This document shows, in pieces, positions 1 through 22,518 of a DNA stretch of 64,000 nucleotides. Position numbers and translations under genes: made by a program. This stretch comes from a bacterium (GTDB lineage: Bacteria > Electryoneota > RPQS01): NCBI GenBank assembly GCA_018814465.1, contig JAHIZR010000228.1, positions 173 through 64,172 of the forward strand, read 5' to 3'. The notes under the pieces are model-generated. The model was not told the DNA's origin. It saw only the letters and a program-made list of their open reading frames with translations, and did no database searches. Every line of letters starts with the position of its first letter. Within the stretch, counting starts at the first letter, position 1.

Positions 1-482
1 ATGCCTGCCCGCAAACCACAACTGTGCATATCTATTGTCTGGATTGCGCCACACTGTAGCTGACCGATGCCTGCCCGCAAACCACAACTGCGTTATCGCA
101 TCGCCCTGCTGCCGATTGACTGTAGCTGACCGATGCCTGCCCGCAAACCACAACTTTACTGTCGGAATGTACGCACGGTCTTTTACTGTAGCTGACCGAT
201 GCCTGCCCGCAAACCACAACATGGCGGCTGGCATTAAGTGTCTCGTAAGTACTGTAGCTGACCGATGCCTGCCCGCAAACCACAACCCTGTCACTCACTT
301 GGATATAGGCTGTCAACTGTAGCTGACCGATGCCTGCCCGCAAACCACAACACCTGCACCCGCGACGATTGCCGCACCGAAACTGTAGCTGACCGATGCC
401 TGCCCGCAAACCACAACCGTTTCCTGCGGGTTATTAGCAGCACGGGACTGTAGCTGACCGATGCCTGCCCGCAAACCACAAC
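1..482. CRISPR. CRISPR array: 8 copies of the 36-bp repeat ACTGTAGCTGACCGATGCCTGCCCGCAAACCACAAC (first copy truncated at the window edge; full copies at 53, 119, 185, 251, 316, 382, 447) and 7 spacers of 29-30 bp. It continues upstream of the window. No cas genes in the window.
   Basis: Identical repeats and unique spacers read directly. The reverse complement GTTGTGGTTTGCGGGCAGGCATCGGTCAGCTACAGT has the GTTGT...GCTACA(A/G)T shape of type II-C repeats, and the 36/30 geometry also fits type VI-B. Confidence 0.93.
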
Positions 483-1632: not shown

Positions 1633-2235
1633 CTATTTGAAGAACATTCTTGCATTAACAGTGATTGCCAACGTTGGTGCAAGCGCAGCGAGTCTTCGCC
1701 GAGCAGAATCGCACGAAACGTAGGCTCCCACAATATAATTATCCGGAATGACATTTGGAACCAAAACCTCAGCACACATTCTCGATTTGTGCTCCCATTC
1801 GGCAACTTCGTTTCCCGGATGTTTCCATGATTCTGCGAAGGTATCATTGCCAACCAGCGACAACCCGCTCGATGAAGGGCGGAATCTCGCATATTCGCTG
1901 GAAGCGTTGCGATCCGTAAAAACGACGTTAGGAAGATCAACCACAGTTGGTGAAATCTTCAGTACACAGAGTTCATCGCCAGAGCAAATACCTCCGTGGA
2001 TATCCTTGTACATCATCGGATTCCGCGCGTTGAAGTAGAGATTCACATAATCATGCAAGCGCATGCCCCCTGGAACCACTATAATCTTTCGGCGATCTTG
2101 AATCTCTGGCATAGCAACAGATCTATGCCTGATCTTACAAACACCCGTATGTGAAAGAATGCCGTGCGACAAGATCGACGGTACGTTTTCAATCGCGGTG
2201 ATGTAGTGTAGCTCTGACAGCCGAGATCGTTCCAC
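1633..2235 (-). CDS. darT: DarT ssDNA thymidine ADP-ribosyltransferase toxin (DUF4433). Start codon appears to be GTG.
   Basis: N-terminal HYITxxxNxxSIL motif, VFTDR motif and C-terminal catalytic Glu region (CAEVLV) typical of DarT. About 200 aa. Paired with a macrodomain gene. Confidence 0.82.
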   Translation of the reverse strand: MERSRLSELHYITAIENVPSILSHGILSHTGVCKIRHRSVAMPEIQDRRKIIVVPGGMRLHDYVNLYFNARNPMMYKDIHGGICSGDELCVLKISPTVVDLPNVVFTDRNASSEYARFRPSSSGLSLVGNDTFAESWKHPGNEVAEWEHKSRMCAEVLVPNVIPDNYIVGAYVSCDSARRRLAALAPTLAITVNARMFFK

Positions 2236-2884: not shown

Positions 2885-2989
2885 GGTTTAGAATCAAATC
2901 AAAACCCCCGACACCTGAGAAATCTTGCCGGATTGCAGGCGACGGGGGCAAAGCTAACCAACAGGGGCTTTGCGCTCCCAGAGGTCTGA

Positions 2990-3310
2990 ATGAAATATAA
3001 AGTAAAGAATGGGCATTGTCAACCTAAGATTTCACTCGACTTAACGAGTAAACAGGTTTGCGAGCTGCTGGGGGTGACGGCCAATTGGCTGAAGAGTCAC
3101 GGTCACCTCTTCAAGCGGCGTCAGCAACCGGGCCGGGGGCGGAACGGGCTGGAGTGGCGTTATGATCGAGCGAATGTAGAATCGTATCGCCGTCACGGAT
3201 ATAGCGAGACCGAACTCGTCGAAAATCCGTATCACGGCAAATCCGTCGCGGAAATCGCGGCGATAGCTAAGGAGAGAGTCAGGCGCGGCCTTGTGAGCAC
3301 AAGCTCATAG
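2990..3310 (+). CDS. Cro/excisionase-like small HTH DNA-binding protein
   Basis: Segment QVCELLGVTANWLK looks like an HTH. It is the first gene of the rightward operon, opposite the repressor. Confidence 0.5.
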   Translation: MKYKVKNGHCQPKISLDLTSKQVCELLGVTANWLKSHGHLFKRRQQPGRGRNGLEWRYDRANVESYRRHGYSETELVENPYHGKSVAEIAAIAKERVRRGLVSTSS

Positions 3311-3364
3311 GGTTCGCGCTTTTTTGTTTTTGATCGAATCCACCAACCCAACGGAGAATGCCAG

Positions 3365-3592
3365 ATGATGATCGAAGAATTCGAACGGATCGAACATGAC
3401 GGAAAGATTTCCGGGGAGCAAGTCAAGGAACTGATCGCGGATGCAATTGAGGGCGCGTACGGCGAACGGCACGAAGTAACCGATCGCGAACTCATCGACT
3501 TTTTCAAATGGGCGACGGAGATGTTTGGACAAGGGGGATGCGAACTTAACGATTTCACGGCACGGTTTCTTATCGCAACTAAGCGCGTTTAA
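3365..3592 (+). CDS. Small acidic hypothetical protein (75 aa)
   Basis: ORF with an RBS-like GGAGAA upstream. Acidic composition. Confidence 0.5.
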   Translation: MMIEEFERIEHDGKISGEQVKELIADAIEGAYGERHEVTDRELIDFFKWATEMFGQGGCELNDFTARFLIATKRV

Positions 3593-3643
3593 GCGCCTTG
3601 CAGGTTTTTAAATAATCCTACCACCCCAAAAAGCGAGAATGCC

Positions 3644-3970
3644 ATGAAGCTTTACAGATTCGAACGAGGAGACAAGGTCCGCCGCCGCGCGGAGTGCGGC
3701 GCGGCGAATCATCCCGCAATCGTCGAAGTGCTCGAATGCGACGAGTTCTGCCTTCGGTTCATCGGCGCTGGGGTTGATCATTTCGGAATTTACGATCCGG
3801 CAAACTATGAACTGGTCGAAGGCGAATGCAGCTACTGCAATGGGATCGGGCACGTCCTCGGGCGCTATTACGGCGAGGGGGAATTCGAGCGGCACACCTG
3901 CCTCGTTTGTCACGGCACGGGCCGGCTCAATTACGATGCATTGAAGGAAGCGAAAGGGATCGCGGCATGA
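3644..3970 (+). CDS. Hypothetical protein with a DnaJ-type CxxCxGxG zinc-finger pair
   Basis: CSYCNGIGH...CLVCHGTGR. Confidence 0.55.
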   Translation: MKLYRFERGDKVRRRAECGAANHPAIVEVLECDEFCLRFIGAGVDHFGIYDPANYELVEGECSYCNGIGHVLGRYYGEGEFERHTCLVCHGTGRLNYDALKEAKGIAA

Positions 3971-4332
3971 TTCGCATACTATTAGTCGAGGACGAACAGT
4001 CCATCCGCGAACCTTTCGCCGAGTTACTCCGCGAGTACGACTACATGGTAGTCACTGCGAATAATGGCTTGACGGCGGCGCAGTATCTCGAAATCATCCC
4101 GATTGATCTGGTCATCACCGACTCGGATATGCCGCTCTGCGACGCGATCGAATTGACGCGCCGAATTCGCAGAGCGAGCGCGGCCCTGCCGGTGATCGCG
4201 ATCTCCGGTGAATGGCAGAACGAAAAGCCGATGATGGAGGCGGGCGCGAATGCGTTTCTGCTGAAGCCGGTCGAAATCGAAGTGCTGATTGGAATGATTG
4301 AAGAGCTCACGAAGAAAGGAGTGGCGGCATGA
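3967..4332 (+). CDS. Stand-alone CheY-like response-regulator receiver (REC) domain protein
   Basis: MIRILLVEDE acidic pocket, DLVITD phospho-acceptor Asp and a conserved Lys in LLKP. ATGA overlap with the upstream gene. The ORF-track alternative at 3826 overlaps its neighbour heavily. Confidence 0.7.
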   Translation: MIRILLVEDEQSIREPFAELLREYDYMVVTANNGLTAAQYLEIIPIDLVITDSDMPLCDAIELTRRIRRASAALPVIAISGEWQNEKPMMEAGANAFLLKPVEIEVLIGMIEELTKKGVAA

Positions 4333-4616
4333 CAAAGGTAGTTCATGTTGAGTTCGATGATTGCGGGGCGGGGTGCCCGTTTCTTGAAAGTACTGAAGGT
4401 GTCAGCGGAGATTTTAACGGATACAGATGTAGAAGGCTCTGGAAAGAAATTTACTTTTCTTCCGGAGTATTCCCTGATGACTGCCCACTGCCGGACAAAG
4501 AAGAACCTGAACTCCCGCCCTGCGAACTGTGTGGAGAGCATATCGCGGGTGGCGAATTTGAGGGTCTTTACATTTGCGGAGATTGCTATCAAGAATTAGA
4601 GTTGCCGACCGATTAA
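4329..4616 (+). CDS. Cys-rich hypothetical protein (putative zinc ribbon)
   Basis: Several CxxC pairs. ATGA overlap with the REC gene. Confidence 0.55.
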   Translation: MTKVVHVEFDDCGAGCPFLESTEGVSGDFNGYRCRRLWKEIYFSSGVFPDDCPLPDKEEPELPPCELCGEHIAGGEFEGLYICGDCYQELELPTD

Positions 4617-4628
4617 GGAGCAGACACG

Positions 4629-5447
4629 ATGATTAAGTACATCAATCAATCACTTTTAAACCTGCATGCCAAATGCGGGATTGCAGCGGAATACCGGGTA
4701 TCAGGGCTCATCATCCCCCCTGCCGCCGCCGCGCATCGCGGCACGGGCGTGCACCGCGCGGCGGAGGCGGACGCGCGGCGGATTCAGTTGAGCAGCGACC
4801 GCTTGACCATTCCGGAATTGCAGGACGCCGCCGCGACCGCGTTTTGTGAGAGCGTCGAGAAACACGGCGTGTATCTGAGCGCCGAGGACGCTCCGCAAGC
4901 GCGAGTTATTCTCGGGCAGGCGAAAGATGAAGCCGTGCGCGCTGCCGCGCTCTACGGCGAACGGGTTAGCCCGCGCATCGGCCAGCCCGTTCATATCGAG
5001 GAAGAGATCGTCGTGCAGATGGACGGATTGGATTATCCACTTGGCGGTACGCTCGATCTCGTTCATCTCGTCACCGCCGGTTACAAAATCACCGATTTAA
5101 AAACGACGGGCAAGGCGCCCGATCCGTCCGTCGCGACCCATTCGATTCAAGCGCCGATGTACGAGCTGCTGGCCGAGCGGGCCTTGGGGTTAAAGCCGTC
5201 GTTCGAGTTCGAGTTCATCAAGCTGCTGAAAACGAAATCCGAGACGATCACGATCCCGGCCGTCTTTACGCCGCAGACGCGCGCGAACCTGCTGCAACGG
5301 GCCAGTGTCTTCGAAGCGCATTTGCAATCCGGGGTGTTCACTCCGGCGGCGCCGGGATCGTGGTGGTGCTCAGAATCTTGGTGCGGCTATTACGGGATTT
5401 GCGCGCACGGCGCGAAGCAGTCCTGCCAGATCGCGATGAGCGCGTAG
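4629..5447 (+). CDS. PD-(D/E)xK exonuclease of the Cas4/RecB/AddB type with an Fe-S cysteine cluster
   Basis: DLVHL...ITDLKT nuclease motifs. One N-terminal Cys and a C-terminal CSESWCGYYGIC cluster. AAGGAG RBS. Confidence 0.7.
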   Translation: MIKYINQSLLNLHAKCGIAAEYRVSGLIIPPAAAAHRGTGVHRAAEADARRIQLSSDRLTIPELQDAAATAFCESVEKHGVYLSAEDAPQARVILGQAKDEAVRAAALYGERVSPRIGQPVHIEEEIVVQMDGLDYPLGGTLDLVHLVTAGYKITDLKTTGKAPDPSVATHSIQAPMYELLAERALGLKPSFEFEFIKLLKTKSETITIPAVFTPQTRANLLQRASVFEAHLQSGVFTPAAPGSWWCSESWCGYYGICAHGAKQSCQIAMSA

Positions 5448-5510
5448 GCTTACGGGTAATTTGAATTGAATCACTTTCACAATCATACTGACTTAAGGAG
5501 AGTACAGATC

Positions 5511-6794
5511 ATGACAGATCAGAACAGCAACGGTCGGGAATTTGAGAATATCCCGATTGTAACGCCGGAAGTCGTCGAGCGCATGTCGGGCGGCGTCAAC
5601 GGTGTCGGCGACATTGTCGCTTCCGGACGGACGATTGAGCAGATCCGGTCGAAATATCACACAGCGGTGCGCGTACAGGTCGCGCGCGATCTGGATTCAG
5701 TGAAGAAGCGCTGTTTGCAGGAGGCGAAGCACGGCGGCGATGAGTTCGGTTGGGCATGGCCTGTCGAGATTCCGGTGAAGGACGAGCGCGGCCAGATCAA
5801 GAAGGATGCGAACGGCAGATGGATCACGAAGGAAGAGATTATCGACGGCAAGAGCGTGCATCTCGCGATGGCCGCCGCGCGCAACTGGGGCAATTGCACG
5901 ACCGAGTTGTACGTGACTGCCGACCTGCCGGATCGCTGCGAACTCATGGGCGTGTTTGTGGATTTCGAGACGGGGTATACGAACATGCGGCCTTATACGA
6001 TTCGGAAGGCGTCGCGAGAACTATCCGAGAAGCAGAAGAAGAAGGCTTCGCAAATCGCGCGGCAGGAGGATATGACCATGCAGATCGGACTATCCAAGTG
6101 CATTCGCAACGTCGTGTTGGGCGCGTTGCCATCGTGGCTGACCGATTCGATGTACGAGGAATCGAAAAAGTACGCCAAGTCCCGCGTCGAGGCAAATCTC
6201 AAGGAATCCATCGAGCGCGCGGTCGCATTGTTCGCCAAATGGGACGTCAATCTGGACCGGCTGGAGATTTTCCTCGATAAACCGCGCTCGAACGATCCTA
6301 AAACGGATTGGAACGCCGACGATGTCTTGAAGTTGCGCGCGGCCTATCAGGCGATTAAAGACGGCGATATGACGATTAGCGAGGCGTTTCCAGCGGTGCC
6401 CGGAGCGCCGATGGCAAAACCCACCGCAACACAGACGACCGCGCCAGAGACGCGAACGCCGCCGCCGCAACCTACGCAACCTGCGGAACCTCCGCACCCC
6501 GCCGCACCGCCGACGCAGACGGCGGCGCAACCGCACGACCCAGACGGCAGCTTGACTGAGGAGCAGGGCGCGATGCTCGACGAGATCAACGCGCGCGCGG
6601 GCTTGATCAGCGCCGATCCGAAGATTCAGCGGGATACGATCTTTCTCTGGAGCGGGCAAACCTGCCGGGGCACGCTCGAACTGCGCAATAAGCCGAACTA
6701 TATCATTCCGACGCTTGATGCCGCGCGGGCCGATTGCGAGGCGCGCGGGCTTCAGCTCGCCGGACAAGGGCCGAAGAAAGGAAAACTTCTGTGA
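5511..6794 (+). CDS. Putative recombination / single-strand-annealing protein with a Pro-rich linker (function uncertain)
   Basis: Sits between the nuclease and the SMC-like ATPase. AAGGAG RBS before the ATG at 5511 (the ORF track starts at 5466). No family recognised. Confidence 0.45.
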   Translation: MTDQNSNGREFENIPIVTPEVVERMSGGVNGVGDIVASGRTIEQIRSKYHTAVRVQVARDLDSVKKRCLQEAKHGGDEFGWAWPVEIPVKDERGQIKKDANGRWITKEEIIDGKSVHLAMAAARNWGNCTTELYVTADLPDRCELMGVFVDFETGYTNMRPYTIRKASRELSEKQKKKASQIARQEDMTMQIGLSKCIRNVVLGALPSWLTDSMYEESKKYAKSRVEANLKESIERAVALFAKWDVNLDRLEIFLDKPRSNDPKTDWNADDVLKLRAAYQAIKDGDMTISEAFPAVPGAPMAKPTATQTTAPETRTPPPQPTQPAEPPHPAAPPTQTAAQPHDPDGSLTEEQGAMLDEINARAGLISADPKIQRDTIFLWSGQTCRGTLELRNKPNYIIPTLDAARADCEARGLQLAGQGPKKGKLL

Positions 6795-8077
6795 GGATTA
6801 TCAGACTGACGGCGGAGAACTTCAAGCGACTCCGCGCCGTCGAAATCACGCCTGACAATAACGTCGTTGTTGTCAGAGGGAAAAACGCGCAGGGCAAGTC
6901 CAGCGTCCTGGATGCGATTTGGGCTGCGCTCGGCGGCAAGCGCGCCGTGCCGGTGAAACCGATTCGCGAGGGCGAGGAGCGGAGCGAGATTACGCTCGAC
7001 CTCGGCGATTACATCGTGACGCGCATTTTCACGGAACGCGATAGCTATCTCACCGTGAAGAACGCGGACGGCGCGCAGTTGCGCAACCCACAAGCCTTGC
7101 TGGACGGCTTGATCGGCGCGATCTCCTTCGATCCGCTCGAATTCGCGCGCATGAAGCCTATCGAACAAGCGAAGCAGCTTGCGGAGATTACCGGCGTGGA
7201 CTTCGCGGATCTCAATCAGCGCAAGCAGGAGCTGTTCGCGCAGCGCACGGAAGTCAACCGCCGCGTCAAGCAGCTGCAAGGAATCGTTGCCGAATTGGAA
7301 GAACAGCACCCGCGCATCGCCAAAGCGAAGCCGGTGGAACCGGGCGCGATCAACGACCTCCTGGCCGAGTACGACCGGGTCAAGAACGAGCATACCGAGC
7401 GCAACCGGGACTTGGAGCGGCTCAATGCGCGCGAACTCGATCTGCGCGCCGTGGAGGATGAACGCGAGCGGCTGTTGAAACGCATCGCGGAGATCGATGA
7501 AAAGCTGGCGCAGGGCTGGAAAGCGCTGGCCGTCGACACCGACGCATTGCAGGAACGCATGAAGCAGTTGCCGGACTTGCCGGAGCTTCAGCAGCGCGTG
7601 CAGGAGGCGGTGAAGGCGAACACGCTGAACGAAACGATTTCGAACTATCGGAAGACGAACACCGAACTCGAAAGCGAGCAGGCGCGTTCGACGTCACTCA
7701 CGAAGCAAATCGAGACGCTCGACAAGGAGAAAGCGGAGTTGCTCAGCAAGGCCGATCTCCCAGTGAACGAACTCGCCTTCGACGAATCCGGCGTGTTTTA
7801 TCACGGGGTGCCGTTCGAGCAGTGCAGCAGCTCGGAGCAGCTGAAGGTCAGCACCGCTCTCGCCATTAGTTTTAATCCGAAACTGCGCGTCATTCGCATC
7901 ACGGACGGCTCGCTCCTGGACGAGGACAGTCTTGAGATCCTGCGCACGATTGCCGACAGTGAGGACTTCCAGATCTGGCTGGAGCGCGTCGATGATAGCG
8001 CGGGTGCGGTCGGCGTGCTGATCGAGGACGGCGAAATCAAGGCCATCAACCGCGAGCAGGAAACGGTCGCGGCTTAA
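6791..8077 (+). CDS. SMC/SbcC/RecN-like ABC ATPase with a coiled coil (phage DNA-repair or recombination ATPase)
   Basis: Walker A GKNAQGKSS, long coiled coil, signature-like SSSEQL and Walker B/D-loop RITDGSLLDED. GTG start at 6791 with an AAAGGA RBS. The alternative ATG at 6734 overlaps the upstream gene. Confidence 0.65.
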   Translation: MRIIRLTAENFKRLRAVEITPDNNVVVVRGKNAQGKSSVLDAIWAALGGKRAVPVKPIREGEERSEITLDLGDYIVTRIFTERDSYLTVKNADGAQLRNPQALLDGLIGAISFDPLEFARMKPIEQAKQLAEITGVDFADLNQRKQELFAQRTEVNRRVKQLQGIVAELEEQHPRIAKAKPVEPGAINDLLAEYDRVKNEHTERNRDLERLNARELDLRAVEDERERLLKRIAEIDEKLAQGWKALAVDTDALQERMKQLPDLPELQQRVQEAVKANTLNETISNYRKTNTELESEQARSTSLTKQIETLDKEKAELLSKADLPVNELAFDESGVFYHGVPFEQCSSSEQLKVSTALAISFNPKLRVIRITDGSLLDEDSLEILRTIADSEDFQIWLERVDDSAGAVGVLIEDGEIKAINREQETVAA

Positions 8078-8424
8078 TTAGCTGCATCGTTCATCTCCGG
8101 CAGTGCCGTGCGCGCCGGGTTTCTGGCCGGGTCGTCATTGCTCGTTACACCCCCTTCCCGCCGGATTGTATGCCAGATAGTTGCCGGTGCCGGTGATGAA
8201 CTCCAAAAGAATAGTCTGCGCCTTCCACTCCGGCGCAAGCGCGATCATCGAGCGCTTATAAAAGCCGTGAGCGCCAGTCGGGAAAGCAATGCAGCCGACA
8301 ATCTCCCTGAAGCGCGCGGGGTGCGGGTATCGTGGAATTGGCATTCTCCGCCCGGCCTCGCGCGCAGACGGGATTACTCCGTCTTTATCGACTCTATACG
8401 AATTAACATAACGAGGAGCATAAC

Positions 8425-8718
8425 ATGGATGCACGCAAGTTCGCGGAATTCGACCGCAAAATCGCCGCCGCGCATTGCCTGCGCGAGGATATCGTCGCGG
8501 CGTGCCGGTCACTGCATATCGCGGCGCAACGCATCGAGCGGGGCGATTTCACTGACCTCGATTCGCTCGCCAATCATTATCAGTTCATCGTCGAGACGCA
8601 GGCGGAACTCGCCGCGAAATTGCAGAAGCTCGCCCTCGCCAGCGGCGCGACGTCCGTCGTGCCGGTCAGCGGCAACGGCAAGGTGGAATTCGCAAGCCCG
8701 GATCCGGCGAACCGGTAG
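8425..8718 (+). CDS. Hypothetical protein
   Basis: GAGGAG RBS. Phage early region. Confidence 0.5.
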   Translation: MDARKFAEFDRKIAAAHCLREDIVAACRSLHIAAQRIERGDFTDLDSLANHYQFIVETQAELAAKLQKLALASGATSVVPVSGNGKVEFASPDPANR

Positions 8719-8726
8719 TCAAGCTC

Positions 8727-9122
8727 GTGGATCGCTCCGTCTATACCGCCTTGATCGGCCTCTTTCGAGATCGCCCGCGCGAACTGGCGATCAAGCGCGC
8801 CGACATTCAAGCGCGCCTGCGGGAGCTCTGCGGCGTGGAGGTGCATGTGCGCGACATCCAAAGCCTTGTCGATCACATAGCGGCGAGCGAACACTGGTGC
8901 ATTATTTCGGAGGCGCGCGGCTATTGGCGGCTGAGCGAGCGGGCCTCCGCCGAGGAGCTCGAAGCCGCCGAACACTCCGTCAACACGTTGCGCGCGCACG
9001 CCGAGGCGGAACTGGAGAAAGCCAATCTGCGCGTGAAATGGATCGATTTGATCCGCGAACTGCGGGAACATCCTGAACGGCAAAACGCGCGCACGACACA
9101 ACAGGAACGGCTATTCTTATGA
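8727..9122 (+). CDS. Hypothetical protein (GTG start)
   Basis: Close-packed with its neighbours. Confidence 0.5.
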   Translation: MDRSVYTALIGLFRDRPRELAIKRADIQARLRELCGVEVHVRDIQSLVDHIAASEHWCIISEARGYWRLSERASAEELEAAEHSVNTLRAHAEAELEKANLRVKWIDLIRELREHPERQNARTTQQERLFL

Positions 9123-9418
9123 CAGATTCGATTCGCCAAACCATGTACCCGGACACCGCCAAGCTGATGGCGGATCTGAATATGCTGGACCGCCTGCTCG
9201 CGCATAACCGCGAGCTGATCGGCGACAACAATCTCAAGCTCGAAGAGTTGCGGCGGCTAAAGCAAGCTTTGCAGGAAACGACCGCGGCGATCAAGGAACA
9301 GGTGGAGATCATTCTGGACCACTGGGACGCGCTGAAGATTGACGACCTTTACTTGCCGTATCGCGTCGCTATCGCCGACGCGCTGGATAAACTAACCGAG
9401 ATGCTTTCCGATGTGTAA
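9119..9418 (+). CDS. Hypothetical protein
   Basis: ATGA overlap. Confidence 0.5.
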   Translation: MTDSIRQTMYPDTAKLMADLNMLDRLLAHNRELIGDNNLKLEELRRLKQALQETTAAIKEQVEIILDHWDALKIDDLYLPYRVAIADALDKLTEMLSDV

Positions 9419-9743
9419 TACAAATATCCATACAATCACCATCACGCCCGACAGCTGCGCTTACGACAAATCCATCCGCGACATTCTGCATGAGGAGCTT
9501 GCAGCCAACAAAATCGAGTTGGACATTCCACTCGTGGATTTCTGCACGACGGCGGGCCTGCGATTGACGCGCAAATTCGAGCAGGAGACAGCGCGCCTTT
9601 GCGCCGAGAACGCGCGGCTACAGGAGGAGCTCGCCGCAACCTGGCGCAGAGCATCATTCAATCGCAGCTGCGCGGAAGGCGGAGAGACGTGGACTCAAGT
9701 GGCCGAAGACAATGCGGCAAATCTCGGCAAGGAGCAGCTATGA
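9411..9743 (+). CDS. Hypothetical protein
   Basis: Overlapping start and stop with its neighbours. Confidence 0.45.
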   Translation: MCNTNIHTITITPDSCAYDKSIRDILHEELAANKIELDIPLVDFCTTAGLRLTRKFEQETARLCAENARLQEELAATWRRASFNRSCAEGGETWTQVAEDNAANLGKEQL

Positions 9744-9937
9744 TCGACTGTGTGCAATGCGACGGTCTGCGTTGGTACAGAAAACTGCTGGCGAGCGGGT
9801 TCGTGCTTGGCATAGTCGCGATTGATGATCAACCGCCCTATTATCGAGAGTACCGATTAATTCAAATGCGTCCATTATCGGCGCCTGTGGAAGCATACCG
9901 CACGTCCATACGGAATCAATGGGAGAACGTTCAATGA
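9740..9937 (+). CDS. Small Cys-containing hypothetical protein
   Basis: GGAGCAG RBS. ATGA overlap with rusA. Confidence 0.4.
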   Translation: MIDCVQCDGLRWYRKLLASGFVLGIVAIDDQPPYYREYRLIQMRPLSAPVEAYRTSIRNQWENVQ

Positions 9938-10401
9938 CCACCCCCTCCGAAATTAAAATCATCGTACCCGGCAAGCCGAACGCGCGCAAGGCGCATAAGA
10001 TCGGCTTAGTCAATAATCCCAAGACCGGAAAACCGGTGCGCAAGCCGCTGTTGAACGACGAGGACGCCGCTTGGCAGAACCTCGTCAAGATGGCCGCGCA
10101 GCAGGCGATGCATGGCGCGCCGCCGCTCGCCGGGCATGTCTGGGCGCATTATCTGTTCATCTTCCCCGCCCCGATGAGCGCGCTGCGCAAAGCCGAGAAA
10201 CTGCTGATTATGAGCGGCAAGACGCTGTTGGCGCAGACGCGCTCGGATATCTGTAATCTGATCAAAAACGCTAACGATGGACTCAAAAACGTGGCCGTGC
10301 AAGACGACCGGCTGATCCGCTCCGGCGGCTTCGATATCCGCGTCGGCTTGAAGCCCTGCGCGATCATCACGCTGCGGCCCATCGGAGAACAGGATCGATA
10401 A
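9934..10401 (+). CDS. rusA: RusA-family Holliday junction resolvase
   Basis: Segment DICNLIKNANDGLKNVAVQDDRLI matches the RusA catalytic Asp and Lys pattern. About 155 aa. Confidence 0.75.
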   Translation: MTTPSEIKIIVPGKPNARKAHKIGLVNNPKTGKPVRKPLLNDEDAAWQNLVKMAAQQAMHGAPPLAGHVWAHYLFIFPAPMSALRKAEKLLIMSGKTLLAQTRSDICNLIKNANDGLKNVAVQDDRLIRSGGFDIRVGLKPCAIITLRPIGEQDR

Positions 10402-10407
10402 AATATC

Positions 10408-10665
10408 ATGAAGCGACAAAACACACCCCTCGTCCCGCAACTCCTGCGCGCGGTGGAAGCCGCCCGTTATCTCGGCGTCAGCCGCAACTTTTTGCAGAAG
10501 CTGCTCGAAGCGGGCACACTGCCTTGCGTGCGCTTGGACGGGTATAAGCTACGCATCGCGAAAACCGATCTTGACCGGTGGGTGCGGAAACAGCGCGGCG
10601 CGTATCGGAAAGTCGCTTCGCGCAACCGCGAGATCCAGAAGCTGCATGCGTACCGCGAGGAATGA
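10408..10665 (+). CDS. Small HTH DNA-binding protein (AlpA/excisionase-like)
   Basis: ARYLGVSRNFLQKLLEAGTLP. Confidence 0.55.
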   Translation: MKRQNTPLVPQLLRAVEAARYLGVSRNFLQKLLEAGTLPCVRLDGYKLRIAKTDLDRWVRKQRGAYRKVASRNREIQKLHAYREE

Positions 10666-11080
10666 TCTGGAGGCGCTGCGCGCCCGTATCATCGCGACGC
10701 TGCGCCGGAGCGCGACGCCACTGCGACCCCGCGAAGTCGCGCAAGCGCTGGGGATCGCGACGGCACCCGGCTATAGCGACGCGGTCACGCGGATCGGACA
10801 ACAACTCGACAGACTCTGGAAGCACGGACATATTCAATGCACGACGCTGCTGAAGAAGCAGCGCAAATACTCGGCAAACCCGGACAGCTATTATGAACAA
10901 AATCCTCTTACTGATCTGCGCGCTGCTCGCGCTGACCGTCTTGACCGCGACTGCCTTTATCCCGCTCCCGCAGCGGCTCAAAGCGAGCCCGGGCCGGCGG
11001 CTAGCCGTGGAACGTACGCTGCATCCGGAAGTGCGGCGCGGCGAAATCCTGATCGCATACCTGGCCGACGCCGCTGGTAA
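10646..11080 (+). CDS. Hypothetical winged-helix-like protein. The reading frame conflicts with the next gene (see findings).
   Basis: By eye, third-position G/C usage reads as coding in this frame up to about 10890 and not after. Confidence 0.35.
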   Translation: MRTARNDLEALRARIIATLRRSATPLRPREVAQALGIATAPGYSDAVTRIGQQLDRLWKHGHIQCTTLLKKQRKYSANPDSYYEQNPLTDLRAARADRLDRDCLYPAPAAAQSEPGPAASRGTYAASGSAARRNPDRIPGRRRW

Positions 11081-11189
11081 TCTGACGGCTACGCGGGCGC
11101 TCGTCGATTCCGTCGCGGCGGATTCGTTTTACATTTACGTCTTTCCCACACATCCTCAACACAAAAGGAAATGTACCAATGACCACTAA
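10893..11189 (+). CDS. Small secreted or membrane protein with an N-terminal signal peptide
   Basis: MNKILLLICALLALTVLTATA is hydrophobic. By eye, third-position G/C usage reads as coding in this frame from 10893 onward. Confidence 0.5.
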   Translation: MNKILLLICALLALTVLTATAFIPLPQRLKASPGRRLAVERTLHPEVRRGEILIAYLADAAGNLTATRALVDSVAADSFYIYVFPTHPQHKRKCTNDH

Positions 11190-11487
11190 TGACCTAAAGA
11201 GAATCGATCAACTGATTCGAGAGCACATCGCGACCGGCGGCGTGCTTACGACCGCTAATCTTTTAGACACCGTGGCCGAATTGCGGCGGCTCGTTTTGAC
11301 AAACGCGCACCGGCTCCCGAAAGCCAAGTATCTCGCCGATCATCTCGGCGCCTGCGAGTCGTGCATTATCGAGCAGAACATCAAGGAAGAAGACAAGCTA
11401 CAGGAGCAACTGCCGCTCGATGCGCCCGAAGCGTTCGACGCGGAATTCGAAGGCGAAGGCACGCACGCGAGCCGGAAGGCGTCATGA
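11179..11487 (+). CDS. Hypothetical protein
   Basis: Overlapping start and stop with its neighbours. Confidence 0.5.
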   Translation: MTTNDLKRIDQLIREHIATGGVLTTANLLDTVAELRRLVLTNAHRLPKAKYLADHLGACESCIIEQNIKEEDKLQEQLPLDAPEAFDAEFEGEGTHASRKAS

Positions 11488-11975
11488 CGAAGCGCACTCC
11501 CGTCACGCGCGATACGCTGATCCGGCTCTGGAACGAGGAACCGCGCAAGGTGCCGCTCGCCGTAATGCTGACGACCGCCGAACTGGAGAGCGGGATCGGG
11601 TCCGGCAGGTACGACGCGACCGCCGAGCGTTATGAAGAGCACTTGAAGGCGCGGCGGCAGGATTGGTCGGCGGCGGATTGCACGAGCTACGGTTTGTTTC
11701 AGATACTTGGCATTAACTGGCGATCCATCGGCATAGAGTACGCGATCTACCCGGATCAACACATCGTCTTCGTCGCTGGCACGTCGCCGCTCTCGCTCGA
11801 TGATCTGCTTCGCGTGCAGATGCGAGCCTATGACCGGTTCATGGGCGCGCTAATCCGCAAGCACGGACTGCCCAAGGCGTTTCGGATCTATAATGGAGCC
11901 GGACCGGCAGCAGACCGATATCGTGACCGCGCGCAGAAAGTACAGGCACGACTCACGAAGGATCTCGTCGCATGA
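11484..11975 (+). CDS. Putative DUF3380-type N-acetylmuramidase (endolysin candidate)
   Basis: Motif TSYGLFQILGINW resembles the SWGxxQIMGFN motif of DUF3380 muramidases. Start at the ATG at 11484. Confidence 0.45.
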   Translation: MTKRTPVTRDTLIRLWNEEPRKVPLAVMLTTAELESGIGSGRYDATAERYEEHLKARRQDWSAADCTSYGLFQILGINWRSIGIEYAIYPDQHIVFVAGTSPLSLDDLLRVQMRAYDRFMGALIRKHGLPKAFRIYNGAGPAADRYRDRAQKVQARLTKDLVA

Positions 11976-13663
11976 ACGAACTTAAATTTACGCTCGGAAC
12001 CGGCATCACTTCCCGCGCGGCGATTACGACCGACATCCATAAACTGATCGTGACGCGAATGGTGATTCAAGCGAATTCCGGCGCGGGTAAATCGCGGTCG
12101 ATGCGCAGAATCCTCGAACAATGCTTCGGGAACGCGCAGGAGATCGTGTTCGACCCGGAAGGCGAATTCGTTTCACTCGCGGAGAAATTTGACTTTCTCA
12201 TCGTCGGCAAGGGCGGTCATCTGCCGGTGCGCGTCGATACCGCCGAGCTGCTCGCCCTGAAGCTGCGGCAGTTGGGCATTTCCGCCGTGCTCGATCTTTC
12301 GGACCTCCGCCCGCTCGAACGCACAGCTTACATGAAGGTCTTTCTCAACTCTTTGATGCTCGCGCCGAAGGCTCCGGAACGGCCTTGCCTCGTGGCGATT
12401 GACGAGGCGGACATGTTCGCGCCGCAGAGCCGGGAGTCGCAATCCACGGAAGCGGTCGTCGATCTGTGCGTCCGGGGCCGCAAACGCGGTCTGTGCCCCA
12501 TTCTCGCGGTCATGCGGCTGTCGCAACTACACAAGGACGCGGCGGCGCAGTGCAACAACTACCTGATCGGACGCACCGCGCTCGACGTGGATATTCATCG
12601 CGTCGTCGACATTCTCGGCTTTCAGCGATCCCGGGACCGGGTCGCCACGCTGAAAACTCTGAAACCCGGCGAATTCTTTTTCTTCGGCCCGGCGAGCAGC
12701 TCGCACGACGTCGAACTGCTGAAAGTCGGTGACGTGCAAACCTATCACCCGGATGCCCGCGCGCGCGAGGTCAAGCCGGTATCGACGCAAAGCCCGGCGG
12801 TCAAAAAAGCGCTCGCGCAACTGCAGGATTTGGCGGAAGAGGCGGAAGAGAAGCGGCAGACCGAACAGCAGTTGCGGGACAAAATCCGCGAACTGGAAAC
12901 GCAAGTCCGATCTTTCGGGAAAAACGCCGCCGATCCGAAAATCTTAAGCGACTTGCGCAACCAGAATCTGCAACTGCGTGCCGAACTGAAAGCCATGCGG
13001 GCACGGTATCATTTCATCTTGACCGAGATGAATGTGATCAACGACAAAATGGCCGGACTGATCGAGCGCGAAAAGGCAGAGAACCTTGACGAGATCGCCG
13101 AGCTTCCGTTCATCGACGAGCCGCCTGCCGTTAGCCGTCAATCCGCTTTGGAGGCGGTCTCCCCCACGCCGTTATCGCACTACAGCCAGCAATCAACCAT
13201 CGATTCGCTGACGCCGCTGGCCGCGAAGTTGCTGCGCGCCGTCGTGCAATTCCATCCGAAGCCGGTGAAACTGCGCCGTGCCCTGCTCATCGCGGGTGTC
13301 TCCCCGCGAAGCAGCAACGTCGGGAAGTTCAAGAAAGACTTGGTCGCTCAGGGATATGTCGAGATCAACGGCCAATGGATCACCGCGACAAAGGCCGCGC
13401 TCGCGGCGGTCGGCGATTATACGCCCTTCCCCACCGACGCTAAGTCGATGATCGCCTCGGTTAAGTCGCTCTTCGATCCGAGCACGGCGAACCTGCTGGA
13501 AGCCATCTATCAGCACCCTGGACTCGTGAAGGGCGCGTTGCTGGACTTCGCGCAAATCAGCCGCACGTCGAGCAACGCCGGACGCTGCTTCAAGGAGCTC
13601 CGCGAATACGGCTTGATCGAACAGCGCGGCGAACGATTCTACTTGAGTGAGGAATTCAGTTAA
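11972..13663 (+). CDS. HerA/FtsK/DUF87-like P-loop NTPase with coiled coil and C-terminal winged-helix domains
   Basis: Walker A QANSGAGKSRS and Walker B LVAIDEADMF. A coiled coil follows, then repeated wH-like segments. Confidence 0.6.
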   Translation: MNELKFTLGTGITSRAAITTDIHKLIVTRMVIQANSGAGKSRSMRRILEQCFGNAQEIVFDPEGEFVSLAEKFDFLIVGKGGHLPVRVDTAELLALKLRQLGISAVLDLSDLRPLERTAYMKVFLNSLMLAPKAPERPCLVAIDEADMFAPQSRESQSTEAVVDLCVRGRKRGLCPILAVMRLSQLHKDAAAQCNNYLIGRTALDVDIHRVVDILGFQRSRDRVATLKTLKPGEFFFFGPASSSHDVELLKVGDVQTYHPDARAREVKPVSTQSPAVKKALAQLQDLAEEAEEKRQTEQQLRDKIRELETQVRSFGKNAADPKILSDLRNQNLQLRAELKAMRARYHFILTEMNVINDKMAGLIEREKAENLDEIAELPFIDEPPAVSRQSALEAVSPTPLSHYSQQSTIDSLTPLAAKLLRAVVQFHPKPVKLRRALLIAGVSPRSSNVGKFKKDLVAQGYVEINGQWITATKAALAAVGDYTPFPTDAKSMIASVKSLFDPSTANLLEAIYQHPGLVKGALLDFAQISRTSSNAGRCFKELREYGLIEQRGERFYLSEEFS

Positions 13664-13735
13664 TGATTTCGAAGCAGTGGTCGATTTGACCAGAATAATC
13701 CGTAAACACGAATCACCAATTACAGAGGAAAGCAA

Positions 13736-14014
13736 ATGAGTCCCCAACATCTCGGCAAGCACGCCCAGGACAAAATCACCGGGTTTAAAGGTATCGTTAC
13801 CGGCGAGATCGCCTATATCACCGGATGCGATCAGATCCTCATTCAGCCGCAGGGTCTCGACGACAACGGCAAGCCGTTCGAAAGCCGTTGGTTCGACATC
13901 TCCCGCTGCGAAATCGGCGACGAGATTCTTTACGAGCCTTTGCGGCAAGTAGAGCCGGGCGCGGATCGTCCCGGCGGCCCCGGCGACGAGAACCCAACCG
14001 ATCACGTTCGATAG
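13736..14014 (+). CDS. Hypothetical protein
   Basis: AGGAAAG RBS. Confidence 0.5.
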   Translation: MSPQHLGKHAQDKITGFKGIVTGEIAYITGCDQILIQPQGLDDNGKPFESRWFDISRCEIGDEILYEPLRQVEPGADRPGGPGDENPTDHVR

Positions 14015-14026
14015 TTATTCAGAGCC

Positions 14027-14386
14027 ATGCCGATCCATTCTGACGACAAGCATCGCTACCCGCCGAACTGGAAGGTGATTCGCGCGGCGATTCTGAAACG
14101 CGCCACCAACAGCAACGGCGATCAGCAGTGCGAATGCCGCGGCGAATGCGGCTTGCATCACGGCAAGCGCTGCAGCGAATTGAACGGCTATCCGGCGGAA
14201 TGGGCGAAGGGCACGACCGTGCTCACGATTGCTCATCTCGATCACAACGCTGACCCTGATAACCACTCGGATGCTAACCTGAAGGCCATGTGCCAGAGGT
14301 GCCATTTACGGTATGATTCGAAGCAACATCAAGCGAATGCGCGAAAAACACGGCGCGCCAAGAAGGCGTGCGGAGAGCTTCTGTGA
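14027..14386 (+). CDS. HNH endonuclease
   Basis: Motif HLDHNADPDNHSDANLKAMCQRCHLRYD plus an upstream Cys pair. Confidence 0.75.
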   Translation: MPIHSDDKHRYPPNWKVIRAAILKRATNSNGDQQCECRGECGLHHGKRCSELNGYPAEWAKGTTVLTIAHLDHNADPDNHSDANLKAMCQRCHLRYDSKQHQANARKTRRAKKACGELL

Positions 14387-15237
14387 AATGGTTTAAGCAC
14401 GATACGGACGGTCACGAATCCGAAAAACTCGTTGCATTGAGATCAAAGTTTGGCTGGGACTGGCTGGCGCGCTGGTACGTGCTGCTCGAAATGGTGGCGG
14501 CTAAGATGGACGACTCCGACCGCTGTCATCTCGAATATCCGATCAAGGAATGGTGCTATCAGCTGGACTGTACTCCGCGCCAATTACTGGCGTTTATGAC
14601 CTATCTTGACGCCGAAAAAATTGGTGGAAGTACGGTCAAAGTTGACCCGGAGTTACTCCAAAGTTTCACCCAAAGTTCGCCTGAAGTTACTCCAAAGTTA
14701 CGTCAGAGTTCGGCTGAAGTATCGCCAAGGTTACGCCGAGATTCCGTGGCTATTACGTCTAAGTTACTTCGGATTGACATACCTAACCTGCTGAAAAAGA
14801 GAGATGATAGCTCTCGAAAAGTCCGGAAAAAGTCCAGTAAAAGTCCCGGCCAGAGCGTAGAGCGTAGAAATTCTTCTAACGAAGAATTAAAAGAGCGTAG
14901 AGCGAAGAGCGAAGAGCACGCAAACGATTCCGAACCGAACATCGCTCCATCGCCTTTTCCAAAACCTGAGTCGGAAGATCAGTTTTTGAACGATCTCGAC
15001 GAGTTCATGGATCAACTTAACGAAATCGTCAAGCTCACCGAACACGACCGGCGCGGTATTCGATTTGACATCCTCCAACGCGGCAAGAGTGACGACCTGT
15101 CATGGATTCTGGATCAACTACGAGCGGCTAAGACCGACGGGCGGTTGAACGTCGAGAAACACGGCATCCGAAACGCTACGGCGTTCATTCGCAGCAAGAT
15201 TCAGGAGCTGTCCGGGAACAAACCACAAGGCCCTTAG
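14368..15237 (+). CDS. Putative phage replication initiator (Lin1244/DUF4373-like N-terminal domain). The gene contains iteron-like repeats.
   Basis: N-terminal segment WFKHDTDGHESEKLVALRSKFGWDWLARWY resembles the DUF4373-like N-terminus of phage initiators. Periodic AAGTT repeats and an AT-rich stretch lie within the gene. Confidence 0.5.
   Translation: MRRASVKWFKHDTDGHESEKLVALRSKFGWDWLARWYVLLEMVAAKMDDSDRCHLEYPIKEWCYQLDCTPRQLLAFMTYLDAEKIGGSTVKVDPELLQSFTQSSPEVTPKLRQSSAEVSPRLRRDSVAITSKLLRIDIPNLLKKRDDSSRKVRKKSSKSPGQSVERRNSSNEELKERRAKSEEHANDSEPNIAPSPFPKPESEDQFLNDLDEFMDQLNEIVKLTEHDRRGIRFDILQRGKSDDLSWILDQLRAAKTDGRLNVEKHGIRNATAFIRSKIQELSGNKPQGP
14650..14930. repeat. Candidate phage origin of replication: about 8 phased copies of CNAAGTTAC, 3 copies of GAAAAGTCC, AGAGCGTAG repeats and an AT-rich stretch, all inside the initiator gene
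   Basis: Direct repeats at roughly 10-12-bp spacing read from the sequence. Confidence 0.5.
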
Positions 15238-15292
15238 CGAGAGATTACTTCTTTCGCCGCGCAATCCCGTCATGATCACTTAACTCACTCAC

Positions 15293-15556
15293 GTGACACA
15301 ACTTAATTTTTTTATGACAAAACAGCGCAATTTCTGCTCGGTCAACTGTGCAGAAAATTGGCCGGAGCGCATCTCGCGACTCCTTGCCGCTTACGGCTGG
15401 AGTCAAGCGCGCTGTGCCATGCGCTTGCAGTGTCACGTGCAGACCGTCGGCAACTGGGTACATGGCCGGACGGCGCCGATTCAAGCCTATCGCAGCATGA
15501 TCGAAGAACTCGAATTTCGTAAAGGACTCAGAGCGCGCGACGATGAAACGACTTGA
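15293..15556 (+). CDS. XRE-like HTH protein
   Basis: ISRLLAAYGWSQARCAMRLQCHVQTVGNWVHGRTAP. Confidence 0.55.
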   Translation: MTQLNFFMTKQRNFCSVNCAENWPERISRLLAAYGWSQARCAMRLQCHVQTVGNWVHGRTAPIQAYRSMIEELEFRKGLRARDDETT

Positions 15557-16103
15557 GATGCAAAAGTACATGCAGGGGATCAACGACCTCACCGAGACGG
15601 AATACAAATTCCTGCTGGCTTACTGCGGGATCGATCCGCCGGGAAGCGGGCCGCGCGACGCGCAGCGCGCTTATCTGGCGATCCGGCCCAACGTGAAGGC
15701 ACTCTCGGCGCAGGTCTCCGGACGGCTGATGCTGAAACGCATTCGCGAGAAGGGCGCATTGCCGGAGCTGTTCGAATTACGCAATCTGGGTCTCAATCGC
15801 GCCGTGGATCTGCTCGGCGAATGCGCGCAAGCGGAAACCGTCAAGATCATCCGGCACCGCAACGGCGCCTGGGATTACGTTTACGCGCCGGACTACCGCA
15901 CGCGCTTTCGCGCGGCGCGGCTGCTGCTCGAACTGCACGGCATGATCGGCCCCGAAGCACAAGTGAATATCCACGTCGACAACCGCAAGACGTTCGCGCA
16001 AGCCATCGCGGAACAGGCGGAGGCGGACGAGCGCAAGAAACTCGAACACGACCAAGGATTCAAGAGCGATGCCGAAGACGCGGACTTCTGCGAAACGGAA
16101 TGA
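15543..16103 (+). CDS. Putative terminase small subunit
   Basis: Position immediately upstream of the large terminase. Size about 186 aa. Confidence 0.5.
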   Translation: MKRLEMQKYMQGINDLTETEYKFLLAYCGIDPPGSGPRDAQRAYLAIRPNVKALSAQVSGRLMLKRIREKGALPELFELRNLGLNRAVDLLGECAQAETVKIIRHRNGAWDYVYAPDYRTRFRAARLLLELHGMIGPEAQVNIHVDNRKTFAQAIAEQAEADERKKLEHDQGFKSDAEDADFCETE

Positions 16104-16398
16104 CGAACCGGAACGCCCGCGCGTCCTGCACTGCGAGCAGAAGCGCGACGACGGCTTTCCGCTCGGCGCGGAAACGGTCGTATTCAGCATCACAGCGGAA
16201 GTGTCCGAACGCGAATATCAGCGCATCGCCGACGCCTGGGAAACCGGCGCGGACTACGCGCTCGAAGTGGCCGGCAAAGCGCACGTCGGCACGGTCAAAG
16301 GCAATATCGTCCTCACCGAGCGCGGCACGGCGATATGGACGGTCCAATTCGACCTGCACGAGGATCCCGGCCAATGGGCGGCGCTCCTGAAATCATAA
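16069..16398 (+). CDS. Hypothetical protein
   Basis: By eye, third-position G/C usage reads as coding in this frame. Overlaps both neighbours. Confidence 0.45.
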   Translation: MPKTRTSAKRNDEPERPRVLHCEQKRDDGFPLGAETVVFSITAEVSEREYQRIADAWETGADYALEVAGKAHVGTVKGNIVLTERGTAIWTVQFDLHEDPGQWAALLKS

Positions 16399-17867: not shown

Positions 17868-17870
17868 CTC

Positions 17871-19322: not shown

Positions 19323-19801
19323 ACAACTCAACGCTCTTCTCATTTCTCTTTCTTTTAGTCACGCTCGTGCTCGGCTGCACTGACGAGAATAACTACTACA
19401 CTCTGAACAGCCAGCCGGACGAGGGAGTGCAGATTCTTTATCCGACCGCCACGGATACGATCAGAATCTACACGAGTCCGGATTGGGGCGCTGATACCAT
19501 CGTCTATGGTCGCGTGCGCGCCAGTCTTCCCGCCGGGGTTTTCTCAGCAAACTCGCTGCGCATGGATCGCGATTCGTGCGGTTGGTACGCAAATCAGCCG
19601 GTGACATACCCGACTGCGGAGGAATTCGCGCTGCCGATCTTGCGCGAGCATACGATCAGAAATGAGACGGACAACTGCAATGCTGGAGTGATCGAAGGAA
19701 TACTACCCTGCTGGATCCGCATCGTCGTCGCCGATAATGCGGGCGCGGAGTGGTATCGCACGGTCAGTTTCCACATCGCATACATTGACACGACACACTA
19801 A
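19319..19801 (+). CDS. Lipoprotein (signal peptide plus LVLGC lipobox) encoded inside the packaging and head module
   Basis: MNNSTLFSFLFLLVTLVLGC. Confidence 0.6.
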   Translation: MNNSTLFSFLFLLVTLVLGCTDENNYYTLNSQPDEGVQILYPTATDTIRIYTSPDWGADTIVYGRVRASLPAGVFSANSLRMDRDSCGWYANQPVTYPTAEEFALPILREHTIRNETDNCNAGVIEGILPCWIRIVVADNAGAEWYRTVSFHIAYIDTTH

Positions 19802-19822
19802 CCGTTCCGAAAGCAAATCGCA

Positions 19823-21235: not shown

Positions 21236-21621
21236 GCGTGATCATTACTCGCGCGGCGCGGCTCGCGCGCCTCGCGCAATTGCGGCAAACCGAAGCGAAA
21301 AGCGACGTCTACCCGCTGATCGGCAACCTGCCGACGATGCGCCTGATTCTGGTGTGGCCGAAACTCGCGCTGGACCTGCCGGAAGCGTACGAGAGCAACG
21401 AACCCAACGCCGCACGCGCTCTGGACGATCTCTGGGCGGGTATCATCCTGGATTATCCGGCGCTCGCCGACAGCGCGCGCATCCCGCTATCCGTCATTAA
21501 GCAGCACGTCCGCGAAGCGCAAGTGCACCGCTGGATCTACCCGGACGGCTCGATTCACGCGCACGCACTCGAACTCGCGCGCGCGACCATCCTGAAAATC
21601 GCGCGCGGCAAAGAGGAGTAA
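21232..21621 (+). CDS. Hypothetical protein
   Basis: ATGA overlap. Confidence 0.5.
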   Translation: MSVIITRAARLARLAQLRQTEAKSDVYPLIGNLPTMRLILVWPKLALDLPEAYESNEPNAARALDDLWAGIILDYPALADSARIPLSVIKQHVREAQVHRWIYPDGSIHAHALELARATILKIARGKEE

Positions 21622-21628
21622 GCAAGGC

Positions 21629-22483: not shown

Positions 22484-22518
22484 CGCTATTCCCCTCCAAA
22501 GGGGCATCCCCCAAAAAA

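Follow-up and report, generated by a model that had tools for sequence, protein, structure and literature searches.

Arrays of type II-C CRISPR-Cas systems are transcribed in the direction opposite to the cas genes, starting from promoters within the repeats and running toward the variable leader end (PMC7038990, PMC8092290), and the last 9 nt of their repeats resemble an extended -10 element (PMC7038990). The arrays of Neisseria meningitidis, Clostridium cellulolyticum and Flavobacterium columnare/covae share spacers of 29-30 nt and 36-nt repeats that start with GTTGT and end with CTACAnT, the end including a -10-like hexamer (PMC7038990, PMC8092290). Here, we analyzed a CRISPR array with the same features, located at the very start of a 64,000-nt stretch of contig JAHIZR010000228.1 (assembly GCA_018814465.1; hereafter the window), together with a solitary repeat-like unit (SRU) in a nearby prophage. 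Bases 1-482 belong to a genuine array, probably to its leader-distal part, with a repeat of the type II-C (Cas9) family; the array is cut by the contig end. Judging from its closest relatives, the array would also resemble the described ones in lying downstream of cas2 and in being transcribed against the cas genes, in the direction of the leader. It differs from them in that no cas9, cas1, cas2 or trans-activating CRISPR RNA (tracrRNA) is visible in the window, that the TGn of an extended -10 element is absent and that its host, an FCB-group bacterium close to Calditrichota, is uncultured.

The repeat ACTGTAGCTGACCGATGCCTGCCCGCAAACCACAAC (plus strand) is present in seven full copies without a single mismatch, and bases 1-22 are the last 22 nt (plus strand) of an eighth copy, clipped at the window start (Table 1). 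A first-pass annotation, made from the sequence alone, had counted eight identical repeats: the identity holds for all visible copies, whereas the count has to be corrected to seven complete repeats and one fragment. In the sense of the CRISPR RNA (crRNA; minus strand) the 36-nt repeat reads GTTGTGGTTTGCGGGCAGGCATCGGTCAGCTACAGT. No match to it appeared in 100 shuffles. The seven spacers have the reported lengths of 29-30 nt and are all unique, with at most 13 matches over ~30 positions in the best pairwise comparison and no more than 14 matches to the repeat, so that they are not diverged repeats, a case that the annotation had named as one that would overturn its reading. Bases 1-482 thus show what is generically used to recognize a CRISPR array, namely at least three near-identical direct repeats of 23-47 nt separated by regular unique spacers of similar length, and the original call of an array stands. 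Rfam returned no family match on the array. The minus-strand repeat RNA can form an 8-bp terminal stem with three G-U pairs (-9.4 kcal/mol). A terminal stem, of 7 bp, had been described earlier. There is nothing unusual about it (z = -0.96; 28 of 200 shuffles fold equally well), and for a crRNA that depends on a tracrRNA it should be of no consequence.

To place the repeat in a family, genomes were scanned for two occurrences of the 11-nt pattern GTTGTRGYTTG at a distance of 63-69 nt, which gave at least 120 loci. Among the loci listed, 100 qualify as arrays, in which 36-nt repeats occur three or more times and the spacers measure ~30 nt; they come mostly from Bacteroidota and in part from Planctomycetota, Calditrichota, Spirochaetota and Nitrospirota. 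Cas9 and/or Cas1 is encoded within the same 8-kb block in 68 of these 100 arrays, and Pfam searches confirmed Cas9 (HNH_4, RuvC_III and Cas9_a) and Cas1 in the representative loci L012, L034, L051, L063 and L115. Most of the remaining 32 arrays are located at a block edge, and the ten largest open reading frames (ORFs) scanned beside arrays without cas genes were ordinary genes, with no other effector among them.

The closest repeats among the matches listed, each compared with the host repeat as reference, are those of L092 (Nitrospirota, JAOUMB010000074.1; GTTGTGGTTTGATCCCCGGCAGCGGTCAGTTACACT; 28/36 identical; order cas1-cas2-array), L051 (Sedimentisphaerales; GTTGTGGCTTGCACTCAGGCACGGATTAGTTACAAT; 26/36; cas1-array), L034 (Pirellulales; GTTGTGACTTGCTCTCAAGCACAGGTCTGTTACAAT; 25/36; cas9-cas1-array) and L012 (Planctomycetota; GTTGTGGCTTGACGAGAATCGTCGCTTAGGTATACT; 23/36; cas9-cas1-array). 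All five repeats share 17 invariant positions. Outside the 11-nt prefix imposed by the search, the host repeat is still identical to that of L092 at 17 of 25 positions and to that of L051 at 16 of 25. In L034 and L012 a gap of 375 nt separates cas1 from the array, which leaves room for cas2 only; csn2 or cas4 would not fit. NCBI lists homologues of the L092 Cas1 under the name 'type II CRISPR-associated endonuclease Cas1'. Type II-C systems are recognized by cas9, cas1 and cas2 beside the array, without csn2 or cas4, and by a tracrRNA gene whose anti-repeat is complementary to the repeat. As read from gene content and order, the loci of these four relatives have the type II-C architecture, and they share one antiparallel geometry of array and cas genes. 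They differ from the locus studied here in phylum, at 8-13 repeat positions and by their visible cas genes. These data support the assignment of the host repeat to the II-C repeat family, as first suggested by its shape, whereas membership in a full system is predicted from the relatives, the defining genes being off-contig.

In the wider set of loci with a GTTGTGGYTTG start (L008-L127), three layouts were seen: cas9-cas1-array in parallel orientation (Bacteroidales), cas9-array with an inverted cas1 (Flavobacteriaceae), and an antiparallel array downstream of cas2 (Planctomycetota, Nitrospirota, Treponema, Balneolaceae). The Flavobacteriaceae layout carries an anti-repeat-like sequence just upstream of cas9.

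The geometry of the array had also been considered typical of type VI-B (Cas13b). VI-B arrays are common in FCB bacteria and have 36-nt repeats starting with GTTG and 30-nt spacers; the consensus of their repeats combines GTTG...CAAC ends with a stable internal hairpin. The array thus resembles them in repeat and spacer length, in the GTTG start and in the type of host, but differs in repeat end and fold: its repeat ends in CTACAGT and not in CAAC, and folds no better than shuffled counterparts. In Flavobacterium, the 36/30 geometry and the GTTGT start are common to II-C and VI-B repeats (PMC8092290). The 100 related arrays among the matches listed showed only cas9, cas1 or cas2, the ten large ORFs beside arrays without a cas match were not Cas13b, and neither a large HEPN-type ORF in the window nor a Cas13b in the window or the related loci was found. 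We therefore regard a VI-B array as highly improbable.

The relatives also provide the orientation of the array. All four of them have the repeat, in its GTTGT sense, antiparallel to the cas genes, with the array placed after cas2. Together with the published polarity of II-C arrays, this geometry places the crRNA sense of the present array on the minus strand and predicts the cas genes to the left of base 1. The minus-strand sense, with its GTTGT start and GCTACAGT end, had already been singled out as the informative one, which is in agreement with these findings. At its 3' end the repeat carries the hexamer TACAGT, as previously noted, which corresponds to TACACT, TACAAT, TACAAT and TATACT in the four relatives; the pattern TAnnnT is kept in the host repeat, in the SRU and in L092, L051, L034 and L012. 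TACAGT may serve as the -10 element of a repeat-embedded promoter. Variant or truncated repeats are found at the cas-distal end of the arrays in L034, L051 and L063.

In the mechanism that we propose, crRNAs would be read leftward from the minus strand in the GTTGTGG sense. Like in other II-C arrays, the start of each is probably set by a -10-like TACAGT, located 3'-terminally in the repeat that precedes its spacer. The crRNA would then pair with the tracrRNA via the first ~24 nt of the following repeat and load Cas9. Beyond the left contig edge we would expect the leader and the newest spacers, the genes cas2-cas1-cas9 in plus-strand orientation, and the tracrRNA. Accordingly placed at the other side, the darG-proximal repeat would mark the oldest end of the array, and the DarTG module would merely abut it.

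Several points weigh against this interpretation. The putative promoter is short of the TGn of an extended -10 element, the host repeat reading AGCTACAGT at this position, and the promoter rules of an FCB-group host may differ. The proposed family membership rests on 64-78% repeat identity to relatives, and the exact repeat is absent from the collections scanned with patterns that held both repeat ends fixed: there was no match in 185,579 representative genomes (one per GTDB species), none in IMG/VR with two patterns, and a single chance match, inside a coding region and without an array, in JGI metagenomes. No cas9, cas1, cas2 or tracrRNA of this organism was seen in the window, which covers the right side of the array only. 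Moreover, the terminal repeat adjoining darG is perfect instead of degenerate. Finally, L012 has a repeat-like, possibly tracrRNA-encoding sequence ~730 nt past the cas-distal end of its array, a position that is filled by darG in our contig.

The L012 region contains two such stretches ~730-900 nt past the cas-distal array end, one with 27 of 36 repeat-like positions (3861-3896, plus strand) and a second, strongly complementary one (3717-3760, minus strand). They are possibly a tracrRNA/scaRNA region on the side opposite to the cas genes.

The array had been called an orphan, as no cas gene was recognized in the 60 kb to its right. The absence itself was confirmed for the 63.5 kb of the window right of the array: hidden Markov models built from 38 Cas9 and 51 Cas1 proteins of related loci, together with a Cas2 query, gave no match to cas9, cas1 or cas2 at E <= 10. 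A search of the window for a tracrRNA anti-repeat returned the prophage SRU as the only repeat-like or complementary sequence, and no dedicated scaffold or terminator follows it on the minus strand. However, the array is located at the contig edge, because the window opens inside a repeat and the contig is only 65,216 bp long. The length was derived from three window proteins, MBU0691515 (PD-(D/E)XK nuclease), MBU0691559 (type IX secretion system (T9SS) protein) and MBU0691566 (Kbl), which are NCBI entries on a 65,216-bp contig; a further copy of each is present in the fragmented metagenome-assembled genome (MAG) GCA_018822485.1. The 64,000-base window is therefore nearly the whole contig, with no more than 1,216 bases outside when the two sides are added up. 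Arrays running up to the end of a contig usually mark an assembly break within the repeats. As the closest relatives carry their cas operon on exactly the side that is missing here, the orphan label is not supported, and the apparent orphan state looks like the result of an assembly break inside the array. A query with the L092 Cas1 found no protein that could be tied to this MAG among the best 120 of 7,076 matches.

Alternatively, the array could be a truly orphan, decaying derivative of a II-C array that lost its cas operon and/or tracrRNA, for example by insertion of DarTG and its neighbors at the array end, with spacers that are relics or are served in trans by a cas locus elsewhere. This is in line with the lack of cas genes across 63.5 kb, with the distance of only 19 nt between array and darG, which leaves no room for any further element, and with the intact last repeat. 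In addition, the counterpart of the anti-repeat-like sequence cas-distal of the L012 array would be overwritten by DarTG here, and the DarG and DarT of the window were not found as exact proteins in the second MAG of the same population, which suggests a variable region. Decay, in contrast, is argued against by the eight visible repeat copies, which are all identical. Furthermore, the array leaves the contig on exactly the side on which the relatives have cas2-cas1-cas9, and assemblies typically break inside arrays. Overall, we consider a true orphan unlikely and retain the reading of a II-C-family array cut by the contig end.

For none of the seven spacers a target was found. At up to seven mismatches there was no match in the rest of the window including the prophage, which means that the spacers do not target the adjacent prophage. 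Searches against 50,697 GenBank phage records and PLSDB plasmids gave nothing significant, the 129 fetched loci including the sister phage segment contained no match, and 24-mers of two of the seven spacers (2 and 6) had no exact match in IMG/VR. Without a matching protospacer, no protospacer-adjacent motif (PAM) could be derived. The first-pass annotation, which had asked for these comparisons, had also described several spacers as GC-rich like the adjacent phage; with a GC content of 43-67% (mean 53%) they bear no particular resemblance to the prophage with its 60%.

In contrast to the spacers, the repeat has a counterpart in the prophage. The SRU is the only repeat-like match in the window at up to 13 mismatches, and no comparable match was obtained in 200 shuffles even at 10 mismatches. 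In the crRNA sense it is closest to the host repeat, with 28 of 36 identical positions versus 24 of 36 for the next best among ~100 other arrays listed. Of the 17 positions invariant among the host repeat and its four cas-linked relatives, 16 are retained in the SRU, and its 3' block GTCAGCTACAnT is almost unchanged; four of its eight differences to the host repeat are G-to-A exchanges that would keep G-U pairs. The SRU fills part of a 77-nt gap between the minor-tail ORFs 28005-29153 and 29231-30724. In the sister phage IMGVR_UViG_2713896713_000001 (L128/L129), the sole relative found (81-87% identical), the same two genes are only 9 nt apart, with the junction TTCTAAG followed by GAGTAACT, and the alignment shows a clean 68-nt insertion in our prophage. 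A second repeat near the SRU was not found; at its expected start (29221) only 12 of 36 positions match in a hand alignment. The 30 nt after the SRU gave no match in the searches made, and Rfam reported only a sub-threshold match of the SRU to CRISPR-DR49.

Viral SRUs form a known class. Some of them work as RNA anti-CRISPRs (Racrs; Camara-Wilpert et al. 2023, PMC10651486), and supplementary file 3 of that study already includes viral SRUs of the II-C type. The unit described here has the traits of this class: it is a single intergenic unit in a prophage, has no second (partial) repeat within 100 bp, and resides in a host with a matching repeat (28/36). Evidence for Racr function comes from class 1 and type V systems, in which the repeat hairpin is bound directly (PMC10651486). 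A type II repeat must instead act through the tracrRNA, and our SRU differs further in that it has no predicted promoter or identified acr neighbor, lies in a tail operon and is 78% identical to the host repeat. For RNA inhibitors that exploit the dual-RNA logic of Cas9, namely viral single-guide RNAs (sgRNAs) and viral scaRNAs, descriptions are so far limited to type II-A (Feussner et al. 2026 preprint, 10.64898/2026.06.01.729453). These phage-borne guide-repeat mimics pair with the tracrRNA and sequester or redirect Cas9, and an SRU that follows phage sequence has the same guide-plus-repeat layout. However, the II-A RNAs adjoin acr/aca genes and contain a captured guide directed at the cas9 promoter, whereas our SRU is preceded by the 3' end of a tail gene, which is conserved.

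We tentatively propose that the prophage captured a repeat-spacer unit, the 68-nt insertion (29155-29222), and has retained it to counter the host II-C Cas9 at the RNA level, by decoy or by guide loading; we hold this to be possible but not probable. The RNA would be co-transcribed with the tail genes or start from the -10 element borne by the repeat itself. In the version that we prefer, the plus-strand RNA would mimic a crRNA repeat, pair in crRNA sense with the host tracrRNA and thereby sequester tracrRNA and Cas9, like a Racr or a viral scaRNA and thus as a Racr of type II-C. We also considered that the same RNA could load Cas9 with a guide from the phage's own sequence, namely the tail-gene end that precedes the SRU, and direct cleavage of sister phages that are devoid of the insertion; the prophage itself would be spared, because the repeat occupies the position of the PAM. 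Even in combination, the decoy and guide versions would account for the SRU in only a minority of the outcomes we can envisage. A third possibility is an antisense RNA from the minus strand that pairs with the host pre-crRNA. The four G-to-A exchanges, which keep G-U pairs, would be compatible with such pairing, but the stretch that follows is coding sequence of the tail gene, with no tracrRNA scaffold or terminator. As a fourth possibility, we considered a neutral scar of illegitimate recombination with an array.

Several points also speak against the preferred decoy. Neither a sigma-70-type promoter nor a terminator was predicted near the SRU, and its fold is not significant. Its location in a late tail operon is atypical for an early-acting inhibitor. 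No acr or aca neighbor was identified, the small prophage ORFs not having been screened for either, and the insertion was judged against one sister phage only.

Other origins of the SRU were examined and rejected. A prophage att site equal to the CRISPR repeat, with integration into the array, would not fit, as the prophage ends carry nothing that resembles the repeat and share no direct repeats. An inversion between SRU and array is contradicted by the phage gene order, which is colinear with the sister phage across the SRU. A genuine tracrRNA was discarded as well, the minus-strand downstream region being conserved tail-gene coding sequence without a terminator. A further candidate, a partial anti-repeat at 34017-34060 (plus strand) with a 16-nt stretch of 14 matches to the repeat antisense (CCTGCCCGCGAACCGC), lies inside the ORF 34011-34412 and is probably a chance match in GC-rich coding sequence.

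The prophage encodes a terminase, a Mu-F-like protein, capsid, tail-completion, minor tail and baseplate proteins, and its GC content of ~60% stands out from the 44-53% of the host. The assemblies GCA_018822485.1 and Logan SRR2540949 break at 2894 and 37679/37789, which suggests a presence/absence polymorphism of the prophage. No integrase was detected among the ORFs scanned, and neither att sites nor direct repeats were found between the prophage ends.

The proximity of prophage and array raises the question of whether the array belongs to a mobile element, being phage- or island-borne and using Cas proteins of the host, rather than to a chromosomal CRISPR-Cas locus. The array lies 2.4 kb from the prophage and directly beside DarTG, and the prophage holds a related solitary repeat. 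However, the independent assemblies break at 2894, to the right of DarTG and the helix-turn-helix gene, the GC content of the array region is host-like, the sister phage segment has no such repeat, and SRU and array repeat differ at 8 of 36 positions. Taken together, an array of mobile origin appears very unlikely.

Table 1. Features of the array, the prophage and the adjoining genes in the 64,000-nt window.
Feature	Coordinates	Strand	Remarks
CRISPR array, visible part	1..482	-	crRNA sense GTTGTGGTTTGCGGGCAGGCATCGGTCAGCTACAGT; left end cut by window/contig edge
Truncated repeat, first 22 nt in crRNA sense	1..22	-	cut by window start
Spacer 1, 30 nt	23..52	-	
Repeat, 36 nt, 0 mismatches	53..88	-	
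Spacer 2, 30 nt	89..118	-	
Repeat, 36 nt, 0 mismatches	119..154	-	
Spacer 3, 30 nt	155..184	-	
Repeat, 36 nt, 0 mismatches	185..220	-	
Spacer 4, 30 nt	221..250	-	
Repeat, 36 nt, 0 mismatches	251..286	-	
Spacer 5, 29 nt	287..315	-	
Repeat, 36 nt, 0 mismatches	316..351	-	
Spacer 6, 30 nt	352..381	-	
Repeat, 36 nt, 0 mismatches	382..417	-	
Spacer 7, 29 nt	418..446	-	
Repeat, 36 nt, 0 mismatches, non-degenerate; putative leader-distal (oldest) end	447..482	-	polarity from relatives and PMC8092290
Gap, 19 nt, last repeat to darG stop codon	483..501	.	too small for leader or tracrRNA
darG, Macro-domain antitoxin, 372 aa	502..1620	-	flank, not part of the CRISPR system
darT, PF14487 ssDNA ADP-ribosyltransferase toxin	1633..2235	-	upstream of darG, flank
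Tailed prophage, ~60% GC	2894..37680	+	approximate limits, break points of independent assemblies
SRU GTTGTGATTTGCATGCAACCATTAGTCAGCTACACT	29155..29190	+	28/36 identical to array repeat in crRNA sense; between two minor-tail genes
68-nt insertion (SRU and ~30 nt, size of one repeat-spacer unit)	29155..29222	+	TAAGG microhomology at both bounds; ends ambiguous by ~5 nt

DarG and DarT form a complete toxin-antitoxin defense pair adjoining the array, and the distance of 19 bp given earlier agrees with an array end at 482 and a darG end at 502. The module may be strain-variable. The pair is followed by an HTH_3 protein (2458-2862, minus strand). Within the prophage, the ORFs 3826-4332, 4629-5447, 6734-8077 and 19823-21235 (plus strand) encode a stand-alone response-regulator receiver, a PD-(D/E)XK nuclease together with an SbcC-like AAA ATPase, and a protein whose matches to ParB_N and N6_N4 methylase are weak and below the cutoff. 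The region beyond the prophage contains T9SS-sorted proteins, tRNA-Pro and housekeeping genes; large proteins with a T9SS C-terminal sorting domain are encoded in a block of low GC content (44-46%) at 38202-46785 (minus strand). The best named relatives of the CTP synthase belong to Calditrichota (75-76%) and KSB1, with a range of 73-76% over both, and together with the T9SS proteins this places the host in the FCB superphylum. By tRNA-Pro (47368-47442), a small ORF at ~47541-47981 (minus strand) shows a weak TnsD (PF15978) match in the existing annotation of the corresponding MAG contig (L004 696-1136) and is a possible relic of a Tn7-like element next to the tRNA.

The array alone is routine, as it adds one more II-C-family array in an uncultured FCB bacterium, and it serves as a caution for genome scans, since orphan status cannot be assigned to arrays that reach the edge of a contig. 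More valuable is the combination of a host array and a look-alike repeat in a prophage on one contig, with a sister phage that has no insertion, and this look-alike repeat is the only feature here that is worth experimental follow-up. Solitary II-C repeats in viruses have been catalogued, while they are not known to act on tracrRNA-dependent systems. The locus offers a small, defined and testable candidate: the insert measures 68 nt, the host repeat is known, and the sister phage without the insert serves as a natural control. If the proposed role is true, it would represent a natural RNA-level manipulation of a II-C Cas9, located 29 kb from the array that it mimics.

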